Below are positions 4,796-8,816 of a stretch of DNA of 24,000 nt, piece after piece (the first letter of the stretch is position 1; every line of letters starts with the position of its first letter). The stretch is taken from positions 2,820 to 26,819 of the forward strand of contig CAZXLZ010000012.1 of assembly GCA_964642045.1 (NCBI GenBank). Direction: 5' to 3'. The notes below the pieces were generated by a model. That model did no database searches. It was not told the DNA's origin and saw only the letters and a list, made by a program, of their open reading frames with translations. Source of the DNA: an uncultured Clostridiaceae bacterium. Lineage in GTDB: Bacteria; Bacillota; Clostridia; TANB77; CAG-465. A program made the translations under genes and the position numbers.

Positions 4796-6379
4796 ATGGT
4801 AGAATATGCAATACCTAGTAAAAATATAAATTTAATAATTATGCTTGGCCTTAGTTACTTTGGCATTAATATCTTAAGAGCTATTTTTACATTTTTTGAA
4901 GATCTTACTTATGATAGCCTTGTAAAAGAAATTAGTGCAGACTATCGTGAGAAAATATATGTAAAATTGCAAAATCTGAATCAGAGCAGTATAGATAAGA
5001 TAAAAGTAGGAGAGATACTAGAAAATATAGTGAATGATACTAAAGAACTTCCAAGATGGTATACAACTGGAATATGTAGACCATCTTTCATGGGTTTAGT
5101 TAGGCTTATAGGTACTCTTGTAGTTTTAGCTTATCTAGATATACCAATCGTTATAATAACGCTCGCTATATACATGCTAGGCTTTTTTGTAGCACATATA
5201 TTTAATAAAAAATCTATAAAATATACTAAATTAAAAAGGGAAGCAAATGCTAAGATACTTAACTTTTCTAATGAGCAAGTGCAAGGTTGTTCGACAATAA
5301 AGGCACTAGAAATAGAAAAGGAAAGATTAAAAGAGTTAAAAGAGCTTTTATCAAAGTATGAAAAGGTAACTGATAAACTAGAAAAAAATATTAGAATATA
5401 TAACTGTTTATATGATTTTATAGTATCTTTTGTTGGAGTAACAAACATATTTATAGGATCTATTAGTGTACAAAGTGGTATAATAGCATATAGCGCAATG
5501 ATAATACTTGCAAGATATATATCATCTCCTGAAACTTATGCCAAGTGGGTAATAGAAGGTTTTCAGTATAGGAATGTTGGCAGAATATCTTATGAAAGAA
5601 TAAGAAATATTTTAACAAAAGAAGAGGAAAATGTTGATATAGGGGAAAACTTAACCAAAGTTGACACAATAAAATTTAACAATGTGAGTTTTTCTTATGA
5701 TGGAATAAGTAATGTTCTTAATGGTATATCATTTGAGGTAAATAGGAATGAGAGTATTGCTTTAATTGGTAGGACTGGAAGTGGAAAGACAAGTTTGGTA
5801 AATCTACTTTGTAGATTTTATGAAGTAGATAAAAATAATATGATTGAAATAAATGGAAGAGATTATAAAGATTATAGTATAAGAAGTCTTAGAAGTAAAA
5901 TAGGATATATAATGCAAAAAGTAGTAATATTTGATGGTACAATTTATGAGAATATAAATTATGCAGATAAGGATATTTCTAAAGATGAGATAATAAGAGT
6001 TTGTAAAAGATTAAATTTACATGATAAGATTAGTAGCTTAAAAAATGGATATGATACAAAAATTAGTAGTGATACCGATATATTTTCAGCTGGTGAAAAA
6101 CAGTTATTAAATTTCGCTAGAGTTATGATATTTAATCCTGAAATAATAATATTAGATGAAGCAACATCATCTCTTTCATATAAGTCAGAAATGATGGTAA
6201 GAAAAGCAGTAGAAGAAATAACAAAAGGAAAGATTAGTTTTATTATTGCACACAGACTTTCTACAATCAAAAATTGTGATAAAATATTACTTATGAAAGA
6301 AGGATGTGTGATAGAAGAAGGAACACATGATGAGCTTATGAAAAAGCAAGGAGAGTATTATAATTTAGTTTGTGCATAA
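4796..6379 (+). CDS. ABC exporter half-transporter (fused permease and ATPase); the consensus-site subunit. The 5' end appears frameshifted and the likely original start is GTG 4687.
   Basis: Walker A GRTGSGKTS, Q-loop IMQKVVIF, non-canonical signature FSAGEKQ (6083..6103), Walker B IIILDEATSSL, H-loop IAHRLST. ATG 4796 has no RBS. GTG 4687 lies 3 nt after the upstream stop and behind GAGGAAGAGGAAAT, but that frame stops at 4756..4758. The main frame is open from 4736. Confidence 0.85.
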   Translation: MVEYAIPSKNINLIIMLGLSYFGINILRAIFTFFEDLTYDSLVKEISADYREKIYVKLQNLNQSSIDKIKVGEILENIVNDTKELPRWYTTGICRPSFMGLVRLIGTLVVLAYLDIPIVIITLAIYMLGFFVAHIFNKKSIKYTKLKREANAKILNFSNEQVQGCSTIKALEIEKERLKELKELLSKYEKVTDKLEKNIRIYNCLYDFIVSFVGVTNIFIGSISVQSGIIAYSAMIILARYISSPETYAKWVIEGFQYRNVGRISYERIRNILTKEEENVDIGENLTKVDTIKFNNVSFSYDGISNVLNGISFEVNRNESIALIGRTGSGKTSLVNLLCRFYEVDKNNMIEINGRDYKDYSIRSLRSKIGYIMQKVVIFDGTIYENINYADKDISKDEIIRVCKRLNLHDKISSLKNGYDTKISSDTDIFSAGEKQLLNFARVMIFNPEIIILDEATSSLSYKSEMMVRKAVEEITKGKISFIIAHRLSTIKNCDKILLMKEGCVIEEGTHDELMKKQGEYYNLVCA

Positions 6380-6395
6380 GGTAAAGAAAGAGTAT

Positions 6396-6436
6396 AAAAA
6401 TAAAGAATACTAAATTTTTTAGCATTCTTTATTTTT
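6396..6436. terminator. Bidirectional terminator between the ABC operon and the convergent NTPase operon
   Basis: AAAAATAAAGAAT (6396..6408) pairs with ATTCTTTATTTTT (6424..6436) around a 15-nt loop. Confidence 0.65.
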
Positions 6437-6441
6437 TTATC

Positions 6442-7125
6442 TTATTTATCACTCCATATATCTTTGTTTATAAACTGAGTAAGAGCCATGATAAAAGCAG
6501 ACTTTGTTAAATCTATTCTGGTAATTTGACCATTTGTTAAATTACCAATTCCGCCAACAGAACTTTTAAGATCTTTTTCGTCAAATATCTTGTCCATAAC
6601 TGTTCCAAGCTCTGTAGATATTATTTCATCTACATATTTTAAAGGAACAGGGTAGGCAGGACCTACGCCGACACTTTCATAACCGCTATTATCTTTTATA
6701 ACAGCAACGTTCATGATAACCCATTTTCCAAATAGGTTTACAATGCCTGATTCTACAGCTAAGAAATAATCTGCATGTAATTTGTGTTTTTTAGCATATT
6801 TAATTAGGTTATCTACACGGTTTTTAGCACCTTGATAAGTTTCATCATTAACAGGCTCATTACTTACACCAGAATCTACAGGGATGCCTTCTATTTCTAC
6901 AGTTTCAAAGTAGAGCTTGAAAGCTTCCATTGCTCCTTCTATTTTTCCAGGATTTTTGGTACCTATTAGAAGATTAGTAGTATGTATTAGAATATTAGTA
7001 GTAGGAAATGCCTCAATTCCTTCTCTTACAGGTGTAATATATAGAGGTTTATATGGTGGATCTGATCTTCTCATAGGTCTGGGTTTCCTCGGCAAAATAT
7101 GTCTTCTATCATGAATCATTCTCAT
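6442..7125 (-). CDS. Inosine/xanthosine triphosphatase-like NTPase (YjjX/DUF84 family) with an N-terminal ~50-aa extension. The extension is the third copy of the small-protein repeat.
   Basis: The ~175 C-terminal residues (LLIGTKNPGKIEGAMEAF...VDSGVSNEPVNDETYQGAKNRV...FLAVESGI...GGIGNLTNGQITR) match the YjjX-type NTPase pattern. No ATG, GTG or TTG occurs at the point where that domain begins. The N-terminus M(RM)IHDRRHILPRKPRPMRRSDPPYKPLYITPVREGIEAFPTT is paralogous to the two upstream small ORFs. The RBS AAAGGAG suits ATG 7119 (9-nt spacing) better than ATG 7125. Confidence 0.75.
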   Translation of the reverse strand: MRMIHDRRHILPRKPRPMRRSDPPYKPLYITPVREGIEAFPTTNILIHTTNLLIGTKNPGKIEGAMEAFKLYFETVEIEGIPVDSGVSNEPVNDETYQGAKNRVDNLIKYAKKHKLHADYFLAVESGIVNLFGKWVIMNVAVIKDNSGYESVGVGPAYPVPLKYVDEIISTELGTVMDKIFDEKDLKSSVGGIGNLTNGQITRIDLTKSAFIMALTQFINKDIWSDK

Positions 7126-7300
7126 TTTCTCCTTTTTCTTCTTTTTTATCTTTTAGCCTATCAAAAGTGGGAAATGCTTTATTTCCTGCTCTTGTAGGTG
7201 TAATATATGGAGGCTTATGATTTTCTTTTATTACAACTTTACTATCATCTCTACGTTGTAATCTACAATTATCCAAAGTATCATAATGTTTTATAGACAT
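7109..7300 (-). CDS. Small protein (63 aa), paralog B of the tandem triplet; function unknown
   Basis: Strong RBS: TTAAGGAGGGTAAGTATATG. The core HKPPYITPTRAGNKAFPTF is shared with the neighbouring copies. Differences between copies in conserved codons are mostly synonymous. The 3' end overlaps the start of the next cistron. Confidence 0.7.
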   Translation of the reverse strand: MSIKHYDTLDNCRLQRRDDSKVVIKENHKPPYITPTRAGNKAFPTFDRLKDKKEEKGENENDS

Positions 7301-7313
7301 ATACTTACCCTCC

Positions 7314-7505
7314 TTAACTGTTATTTTTAGTGCTAGTTATAGGATTAGTAGTTACATTTTTTAGAATTCTAGAAACAGGAAACGCCTTGTTTCCTTCTCT
7401 TGTAGGTTCCATATATTTAGGTTTGTGCATTTCTTTTTGTATAGGTCTTTCACGGACACTCCAAATTCCTTTACGAACTCCTTTAAAAGCATTGTAGTGC
7501 TTCAT
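7314..7505 (-). CDS. Small protein (63 aa), paralog C of the tandem triplet; function unknown
   Basis: I prefer the internal Met (MKHYNAFKG...) at 7505 over the ORF-track start at 7604. It lies 19 nt after the zinc-ribbon stop, follows AAAGGATGG, and gives the same 63-aa length as paralog B. The core is HKPKYMEPTREGNKAFPVS. Confidence 0.65.
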   Translation of the reverse strand: MKHYNAFKGVRKGIWSVRERPIQKEMHKPKYMEPTREGNKAFPVSRILKNVTTNPITSTKNNS

Positions 7506-7524
7506 AGTGTTATACCATCCTTTC

Positions 7525-7959
7525 TTACCTTGTAGGTAACTTTTCCCAATCACAAAATTCAGCAATTGGTATTTTGGAATATGTAAAAAAGTTACCATGT
7601 TCATCTTTAATTGCAGGGATAAGAGTAACCTTTAAGGTTTCATTTGATAAATCAACTATAAGCTGGTCGGTTTCTTCTACACGTATTCCAGCTTCATCAG
7701 GAACGAGAATTGATTCGGGATGTGGTACCATTCCTTTATCATTTACTTTCCATTTAGGACGAGGAATTCTTTTTCCAGTTGACCTTCCACGAACGAGTCT
7801 GCCGCACGAATCTTTTAACCAAATAAATTCATCGCATTCAAGCTCAGATTGCCTTTTTTCAGCACATTCAGCGCAGATAAGAGGAGCAGTATCAGAGTAT
7901 GGTCTCCAAAGTTTTACTTTTGATTTTCCACAAAGAGTGCAAGCATAAGAATTATCCAT
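7525..7959 (-). CDS. Zinc-ribbon (CxxC...CxxC) protein of unknown function; first gene of the operon
   Basis: The N-terminus MDNSYACTLCGKSKVKLWRPYSDTAPLICAECAEK has Cys7/Cys10 and Cys29/Cys32. I recognise no other family motif. A sampled 60-nt line (7741..7800) is 40% G+C. Confidence 0.6.
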   Translation of the reverse strand: MDNSYACTLCGKSKVKLWRPYSDTAPLICAECAEKRQSELECDEFIWLKDSCGRLVRGRSTGKRIPRPKWKVNDKGMVPHPESILVPDEAGIRVEETDQLIVDLSNETLKVTLIPAIKDEHGNFFTYSKIPIAEFCDWEKLPTR

Positions 7960-8015
7960 TATGTTTTCCTTTCTGCAAATTTGCTTTAATTTAAGATATT
8001 GCTATGATTGGCAAG

Positions 8016-8044
8016 ATTATATCATACTTTAAGCTAAATATCAA
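8016..8044 (-). promoter_or_regulatory. Sigma-A-type promoter for the zinc-ribbon / small-protein / NTPase operon
   Basis: On the minus strand: TTGATA (8044..8039), a 17-nt spacer, then TGa-TATAAT (8021..8016). It lies about 55 nt upstream of ATG 7959. Confidence 0.6.
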
Positions 8045-8074
8045 TTTAAACAGGTAGAAAAACATGGTTAATAA

Positions 8075-8554
8075 TTAATTTCTTTCGTATTCTTCTAAGG
8101 CTTCACCCAATATATTACCAAATTTTGTTAAGTAATTTTTAGTATGATCAGTCATGTTATCTGGCAATTTATCTATACCAAACCACTGAAGTTTTTTAGA
8201 CTCATTATCATTAATTTTTAAACTTCCACTATATTTCTTTACAACAATTATAGCTGTAATATCATAAAGCTCATCACCATTTGGATACTTCCTATATGTT
8301 TCTTTACCTGATAGAACTCTTGTTATTTTAGATGATATCATATCAAGATTAGTTTCTTCTTTTAATTCTCTTTGAGCAGTTTCTTCAAAACTCTCTCCAA
8401 GTTCCATGGATCCACCAGGAAATCCCCATTTGTTATAATCTGTACGAAGCTGCATAAGAACTTCTTTTTTTTCATTAAAAACAATTATACCTACTCCAGC
8501 AGTTAGAATTGGACTATGTCCAACATATTTTCTTAAATCACTAATATAACTCAT
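8075..8554 (-). CDS. Nudix hydrolase
   Basis: Nudix box GGSMELGESFEETAQRELKEETNL (Gx5Ex7REUxEExGU). I prefer the ATG at 8554 (MSYISDLRKY...) because AGGAAG lies 8 nt upstream. The ORF-track start at 8563 is a GTG inside that RBS. Confidence 0.85.
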   Translation of the reverse strand: MSYISDLRKYVGHSPILTAGVGIIVFNEKKEVLMQLRTDYNKWGFPGGSMELGESFEETAQRELKEETNLDMISSKITRVLSGKETYRKYPNGDELYDITAIIVVKKYSGSLKINDNESKKLQWFGIDKLPDNMTDHTKNYLTKFGNILGEALEEYERN

Positions 8555-8621
8555 AATTATCACTTCCTATAATAGTTATTATACAATAATTATTATGAAA
8601 TTTAAAGTTTAGAAATAAAAC

Positions 8622-8650
8622 TTTACAAGTATGAATAATTTTGGTATAAT
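8622..8650 (+). promoter_or_regulatory. Candidate sigma-A promoter upstream of the 90-aa ORF
   Basis: TTTACA (8622..8627), a 17-nt spacer, then TGg-TATAAT (8645..8650). This implies a leader of about 160 nt before ATG 8817. Confidence 0.45.
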
Positions 8651-8816
8651 ACTTATGTTTATTATATATATGTTATATTTGAATGTTAATATGTTGTATG
8701 CTTTTTACTAGTATAGTAGTGATAAAATTTATTAAATTTAATGGAGGAGGTAAAATAAATACTCATTATACATAAGGTACGCTCTTAAAAATTTACATCA
8801 AGAAAGGATAAAAATT

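Follow-up and report, generated by a model that had tools for sequence, protein, structure and literature searches.

In-frame fusion of a degenerate small-protein copy to a YjjX/DUF84 NTPase without its own start codon in a single clostridial genome

A four-gene block with a chimeric ORF

The window, that is, the whole 24,000-nucleotide stretch of DNA that was analysed, belongs to the genome of an uncultured gut-type Clostridiaceae bacterium known from a metagenome assembly (81% complete, 107 contigs). Its minus strand, to which the gene coordinates below refer, carries four close-packed genes that encode a zinc-ribbon protein, two small proteins (copy C and copy B) and a 227-aa ORF. A promoter-like site of the extended -10 type (8016-8044, minus strand; TTGATA, 17 nt, TG-n-TATAAT), recognized by consensus match only (11/12), stands ahead of the zinc-ribbon gene (7525-7959), which is the first of the apparent operon and encodes a 144-aa, CxxC...CxxC product of an unnamed family. 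Copy C (7314-7505; 63 aa from ATG 7505), of a G-x-W-S...R-P-I subtype like the outside protein P0191, and copy B (7109-7300; 63 aa), of a Y-D-x-L-x-x-C-R-L-Q-R-R subtype and preceded by a GGAGG Shine-Dalgarno site, are both ORFs matched by the profile of their family. The last ORF in the list (6442-7125) ends at stop codon 6442-6444 and encodes 227 aa from ATG 7125 or 225 aa from ATG 7119, the latter being the product proposed by the gene caller (P0001). An Rfam search of positions 6300-8700 of the window gave no match.

The 227-aa ORF is a chimera. Residues 1-48 (6982-7125) make up copy A, a degenerate member of the small-protein family identified by the family profile and by an 82-nt DNA repeat, and residues 50-227 (6445-6978) a complete NTPase domain of the YjjX/DUF84 type, identified with PF01931, TIGR00258, PDB sequences and an AlphaFold2 (AF2) model. 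A preliminary description of this DNA had proposed that a small-protein copy is fused in frame to the NTPase, which is borne out by a single ORF with matches to both PF01931 and the small-protein profile.

The zinc-ribbon protein (C-x-x-C...C-x-x-C, then W-K-V-N/D...E-L-P-T-R, with a weak, sub-threshold match to DUF7573) has about 60 homologous clusters and occurs in six of 40 relatives, in varied contexts. The small-protein motif was not found near its homologues in the contexts inspected, so this gene does not appear to be a general partner of the small proteins. The four-gene block (6442-7959) has a G+C content of 31-40%, versus 23-28% for the flanking ABC-exporter genes, and, among relatives, the NTPase is best matched by proteins of other families (62-66%), ahead of that of its own genus (57%); because of both the G+C contrast and these closer homologues outside the genus, arrival of the block by horizontal transfer would be compatible with the data. 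Directly upstream of the block lies a Nudix hydrolase gene (8075-8563, minus strand) with a weak PADLOC match (candidate system PDC-S07, 38.7 bits), and a Nudix-like gene also stands beside the stand-alone NTPase in three of the seven relatives' loci (L003, L006 and L008), as read from ORF translations without a family scan.

The NTPase domain and its missing initiator

Residues 55-219 match PF01931 (NTPase_I-T/DUF84) over its whole length (profile positions 1-162 of 162) with 145.3 bits against a cut-off of 25, and a six-frame search of the genome recovered the same domain. The NCBIfam inosine/xanthosine triphosphatase equivalog, TIGR00258, is also matched, its cut-off being barely passed (118.9 versus 117.1 bits). 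PDB sequence matches (E-values 1e-13 to 1e-17) were to members of this YjjX/UPF0244/DUF84 family from E. coli (1u14, 1u5w) and Vibrio (VC0702; 1zno, 1zwy), with which the window protein has in common the whole domain, the N-terminal loop of the T-x-N-x-x-K type (G-T-K-N-P-G-K) and the E-S-G motif (V-E-S-G). All 65 invariant columns of a 14-sequence alignment (A1) are conserved in the window protein, including N58, K61 and E125-S126-G127. In the AF2 model of the chimeric protein, built from a 39-row alignment, the NTPase is a confident alpha/beta domain with pLDDT > 90 from beta-strand 1 onwards (residues 47-52 of the 225-aa form).

Of the 97 columns with a conservation of 90% or more, the window protein deviates in 12, versus a median of 2, and this could favour a start-less pseudogene lying in frame with copy A by chance. 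As a sign of decay, we judged this count uninformative, because the comparison set is biased, its sequences resembling one another more than they resemble the query, and because the changes are mostly conservative. A pseudogene is also at odds with a frame that stays open for 177 codons, with the retention of all invariant motif residues and with the confident predicted fold. We infer from the sequence that the NTPase would still be an active house-cleaning enzyme. The genome additionally contains matches to a second family, of the Ham1/RdgB type (PF01725; C74:277-825 and C20:10270-10740, with 184 and 53 bits), and ITP/XTP house-cleaning by that enzyme is probably redundant with that of the DUF84 enzyme. 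Since a Ham1-type ITPase is thus encoded elsewhere, the DUF84 copy may be accessory, and the cell should be able to tolerate a change of its N-terminus.

A search of 5.8 billion proteins retrieved 2,653 homologues of the NTPase, the best of them 70% identical, with P0001 forming a one-member cluster. The family typically consists of stand-alone proteins of about 177 aa whose Met lies right before beta-strand 1 (a typical, not a strictly defining, trait), and nearly all of the 120 best homologues begin with M-K-[IV]-L-I-G-T-K-N-P-G-K. The window protein differs in having Thr50, codon ACT (6976-6978), in the column of the initiator, which is occupied by Met in 118 of the 120 best homologues (of 2,653), 114 of the 120 starting exactly there. 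In this comparison, only the window protein combines a residue other than Met at this column with a long extension, and none of the 120 best homologues has anything like its 49 disordered residues, derived from an unrelated small-protein gene.

The 45 nt located 5' of GGT-ACC-AAA, the codons for G-T-K, contain no ATG, GTG or TTG in any frame. Together with the position of Thr50 in the Met column, this agrees with the earlier observation that the NTPase has no start codon of its own. It also bears on the possibility of an assembly or sequence artefact, whereby the real copy A would end with a stop codon and the NTPase would have its own ribosome-binding site and ATG. Such an artefact could be suspected from the fragmentation of the assembly (107 contigs), and the collections searched hold no second sequence of the locus; however, restoring two separate genes needs several changes, namely two substitutions to turn ACT into ATG, plus a stop, plus a ribosome-binding site. 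As no ATG, GTG or TTG occurs in any frame within those 45 nt, no single substitution or indel can restore both the stop and the start, so that a simple sequencing error is insufficient.

A Shine-Dalgarno sequence, AAGGAG (7129-7134, minus strand), precedes ATG 7119 by 9 nt and ATG 7125 by 3 nt, with anti-Shine-Dalgarno pairing energies of -8.9 and -7.7 kcal/mol, respectively. The NTPase might instead be made separately from an ATT or ATA start near codons 45-54, and such in-frame codons do exist, ATT for I45 and ATA for I47 and I54, but they are devoid of Shine-Dalgarno pairing (-2.0, +2.9 and +2.9 kcal/mol). Met66 was discarded as a start, because a protein beginning there would lack beta-strand 1 and the phosphate loop, and because its Shine-Dalgarno-like site is just 2 nt away. 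To separate initiation, or to the chance pseudogene considered above, we give the least credence of all the explanations discussed here. Judging from these signals, production of the enzyme has to begin at ATG 7119/7125, where the sole strong Shine-Dalgarno site lies. Of the two codons, ATG 7119 is the more probable start because of its 9-nt spacing to AAGGAG, versus only 3 nt for ATG 7125. The preliminary description had left the choice between both ATG codons open; the ribosome-binding site that it reported is present, and the preference for ATG 7119 refines it to the 225-aa P0001. Further in-frame starts occur inside the extension, still before the core (TTG at codon 11 and ATG at codon 18). 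Copy B terminates at TGA 7109-7111, so that its end overlaps ATG 7119, and this overlap suggests that the chimeric ORF may be translationally coupled to the termination of copy B.

The extension, its protein family and the junction

The three small-protein copies have in common an 82-nt DNA core of 71-72% identity (71% for copy A) and the peptide core K-P-x-Y-x-x-P-x-R-x-G-x-x-A-F-P; the core of copy A, Y29-L46, corresponds to 6988-7041, and copies A and C are only about 34-40% identical. With a profile made exclusively from members outside the window, copy B scored 73.6 bits, copy C 49.0 and the extension of the NTPase 21.4 (E 3.2e-6), and no other match appeared among the 285 ORF segments of the window. 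Compared with the family, that is, copies B and C and six outside clusters, the extension retains Y-x-x-P-x-R-E-G-x-x-A-F-P-x-x-x-x-L with the same spacing; it differs by the changes of G-N-K to G-I-E and of L-K-N to L-I-H, by the loss of the N-terminal, CRLQRR-type segment and of the free C-terminal tail, and by being fused. Copy A thus departs from both traits of the family, the conserved residues (G-N-K-A-F-P and L-K-[ND]) and the free-standing form of about 56-108 aa; on these alignments it is a family member, and the most decayed of the three. The tail of about 17 aa that the preliminary description found missing after AFP is indeed shortened, but only by some 12-13 residues, since its first seven, TTNILIH, are retained and match the conserved x-x-x-x-L-K-N of the family. 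The extension is basic, with a net charge of about +6 as counted from the translation, and it is predicted to be disordered and not packed on the NTPase domain, with pLDDT < 50 for residues 1-13 and 21-42 of the 225-aa form in the AF2 model.

A word-index search with copy B returned only copy B itself. When 1.84 billion representatives were searched exhaustively with a profile, six clusters outside the window emerged (P0183, P0184, P0185, P0187, P0190 and P0191), with family loci in L028, L029, L030, L031 and L038. Four very long hits of that search (P0186, P0188, P0189 and P0192) were rejected as low-complexity false positives, because they are Ala/Lys-rich and lack the motif, two of them having a YSIRK-type signal peptide. 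The family consensus is Y-D-x-L-x-x-C-R-L-Q-R-R...Y-x-T-P-x-R-E-G-N-K-A-F-P-V-F-x-x-L-K-N. Each of the seven invariant amino acid columns of the core uses more than one codon across eight sequences, third positions varying the most (26/25/43), which indicates that conservation acts at the level of the protein and not of the DNA. The codons for G-N-K-A-F-P (7372-7395, with counterparts in copies B and A) could fold into a 6-bp hairpin, picked up by the scan as a terminator-like site on the plus strand.

We found no relatives of the small protein in phages and plasmids (tblastn), viral contigs or JGI metagenome contigs, and neither the small proteins nor the zinc-ribbon protein matched PHROGs, NCBIfam or PADLOC; the sole lead for the small protein in the ESM Atlas, to an unnamed viral cluster (0.75), is below the useful level. 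A model of copy B made with the family alignment has a mean pLDDT of 61.6 and no secondary structure, so that the family would seem to consist of disordered peptides with a short linear motif. In all, these small ORFs define a real family, rare, unannotated and unnamed, with a sharply conserved motif. It comprises two subtypes, C-R-L-Q-R-R and G-x-W-S...P-I; in our reading of the N-terminal segments in alignment A4, copy B groups with P0183, P0184 and P0187, and copy C with P0191. As each subtype has its own outside relatives, copies B and C seem to be paralogues of long standing and not the products of a recent duplication.

The junction between both halves of the chimera lies in a tandem repeat (6964-7003, minus strand; period 21, 1.9 copies, 94% matches), detected by Tandem Repeats Finder with a score of 73 and one of only six arrays scoring at least 50 in the 24-kb window. 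It encodes P-T-T-N-I-L-I / H-T-T-N-L-L-I, followed by G-T-K-N-P-G-K; its first copy corresponds to the conserved x-x-x-x-L-K-N segment of the small proteins, and its second copy comprises the codons aligning to M-K-I-L-I of the stand-alone NTPases. A junction inside a short repeat is what might be expected from a misassembly, but the exact runs common to both repeat copies are only of 9 and 8 nt, which we judged too short for a misjoin by a k-mer assembler, and the surroundings are coherent, as regards both the adjacent genes and their overlaps and ribosome-binding sites. We therefore regard an artefact as very improbable.

Between the copy C tail (7323-7352) and the NTPase 5' end (6952-6981), both on the minus strand, the DNA identity is 77%, and the corresponding peptides are T-T-N-P-I-T-S-T-K-N and T-T-N-L-L-I-G-T-K-N. 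Among the 48,000 positions of the window, this tail is the only 36-mer, besides the query, with at least 24/36 matches; in the 27 nt past the common ACTACTAATC, 15 of 27 still match, a level reached by 0.4% of positions. These values suggest that the tail of copy C could be a relic of the NTPase 5' end, in which case the fusion would be older than the split of copies A and C. Alternatively, microhomology between a C-like tail and the start of the NTPase may have mediated the join. Because the junction lies in a tandem repeat and the copy C tail resembles the NTPase 5' end, duplication or slippage seems to have been involved. The preliminary description had attributed the fusion to a deletion that joined both genes; a rearrangement is still the simplest origin, although, instead of a clean deletion scar, the junction shows a 2 x 21-bp repeat.

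Distribution and interpretation of the fusion

The fusion is private to this genome in the sequences searched. Seven of 40 relatives contain a DUF84 gene, in all cases unfused, and the small-protein motif was not found in the flanks fetched for these DUF84-bearing relatives. The small-protein family did not turn up in a search of 400 other genomes of the order, there is no DUF84 NTPase or zinc-ribbon homologue near the loci of its outside members, and the one other whole genome with a member gave no match to PF01931. The contexts of these outside members are unrelated. For instance, one has the gene order mfd, lipoprotein, small protein, Fic-domain protein, and P0191 (L031, 883-3581) has on one side a 427-aa protein that matches DACNH weakly and on the other an uncharacterised protein of 342 aa. 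A partial ORF upstream of P0191 might encode the C-terminus of a recombinase, and this locus could be a mobile or defence island. Likewise, the closest homologues of the NTPase have varied neighbours, which include no small ORFs of the copy A/B/C family. There is no close strain or species to compare with, and the singleton status of the fusion may reflect poor sampling.

According to the preliminary description, the fusion was evidence that the two modules work together physically. This was not upheld: the fusion is a singleton, both modules are unlinked elsewhere, the fused copy is the most degenerate, and the extension is predicted to be disordered. The comparative evidence speaks against a functional partnership between the small protein and the NTPase. 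A predicted complex of the NTPase domain and copy B scored 0.00 and gave no verdict, and it counts for neither side.

The case for a functional fusion would be that the NTPase carries the small-protein module as a tethered regulator, adaptor or localisation tail, and that the free copies B and C act on the same enzyme or on the same partner. The genes follow one another closely on one strand behind one promoter-like site, and B and A overlap; the frame of the extension is intact and basic; and the copy C tail, in resembling the NTPase 5' end, may place the fusion before the A/C split. Additionally, E. coli YjjX has been reported to bind EF-Tu (Zheng et al. 2005, as cited in PMC7865087), which, as far as that citation goes, is a precedent for protein partners in the NTPase family. 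Nevertheless, the singleton status of the fusion counts against this reading, and so does the loss from the fused copy of the most conserved residues, GNK and LKN, with 21 bits versus 49-74 for copies C and B. The same holds for the outside members, which never adjoin DUF84, with no PF01931 match from the sole other genome with a member, for the DUF84-bearing relatives without small proteins, and for an extension modelled as disordered and unpacked (pLDDT < 50). On balance, we consider a functional fusion unlikely.

The explanation that we find probable, if well short of certain, is that the chimera is real and private to this lineage, and results from the tolerated capture of the start codon of a decayed small-protein paralogue by an ordinary YjjX-type NTPase. 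The decayed third paralogue would have become joined in frame to a complete YjjX/DUF84 gene, which would have lost its own ribosome-binding site and ATG during the join. The enzyme would then be translated from the Shine-Dalgarno sequence and ATG 7119 of the small ORF, probably coupled to the termination of copy B, and would bear, before beta-strand 1, some 47-49 additional residues that are basic and disordered. The sequences show the in-frame fusion, the lack of an initiator, the intact catalytic domain, the family membership of the extension and the uniqueness of the fusion; that the cell tolerates it as an accident, and that it is not an adaptive coupling, we infer. It counts against an accident that, despite the AT-richness of the genome, no stop codon interrupts the 49 codons of the extension; and, if the copy C tail were a relic of the NTPase, the fusion would predate a fairly old duplication and would have been kept for long, which argues for usefulness.

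An N-terminal fusion to this fold has a counterpart in the archaeal bifunctional PPAT/NTP phosphatase (NF002250), which likewise consists of an N-terminal module and DUF84, with the NTPase at profile positions 149-320; by analogy, it shows that the DUF84 fold can tolerate N-terminal fusion. There, however, the partner is a folded enzyme, whereas in the window protein it is a short, disordered and degenerate peptide found in a single genome. Membership of the window protein in NF002250 was ruled out, because its score of 62.7 bits is far below the cut-off of 489 and only the NTPase half is matched.

There is also a more specific and rather improbable reading, whereby the small proteins would be peptides with a short linear motif whose target is the NTPase or a partner of it, the fused copy being a tethered, specialised version under selection since before the A/C duplication and the copy C tail then being a relic of an NTPase 5' end. 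Were it true, the locus would give the first clue to the function of this unnamed peptide family and would point to a regulated YjjX-type enzyme.

The main value of the locus is cautionary, in that a fusion seen in a single genome is weak Rosetta-stone evidence; as a by-product, its analysis defined a rare, unannotated family of small proteins with a sharply conserved motif. If real, tolerated start-codon capture at this locus would be a clean natural example of a start-less gene rescued via the translation signals of an upstream small ORF, and would indicate that a redundant paralogue can decay into the disordered N-terminal tail of another protein.
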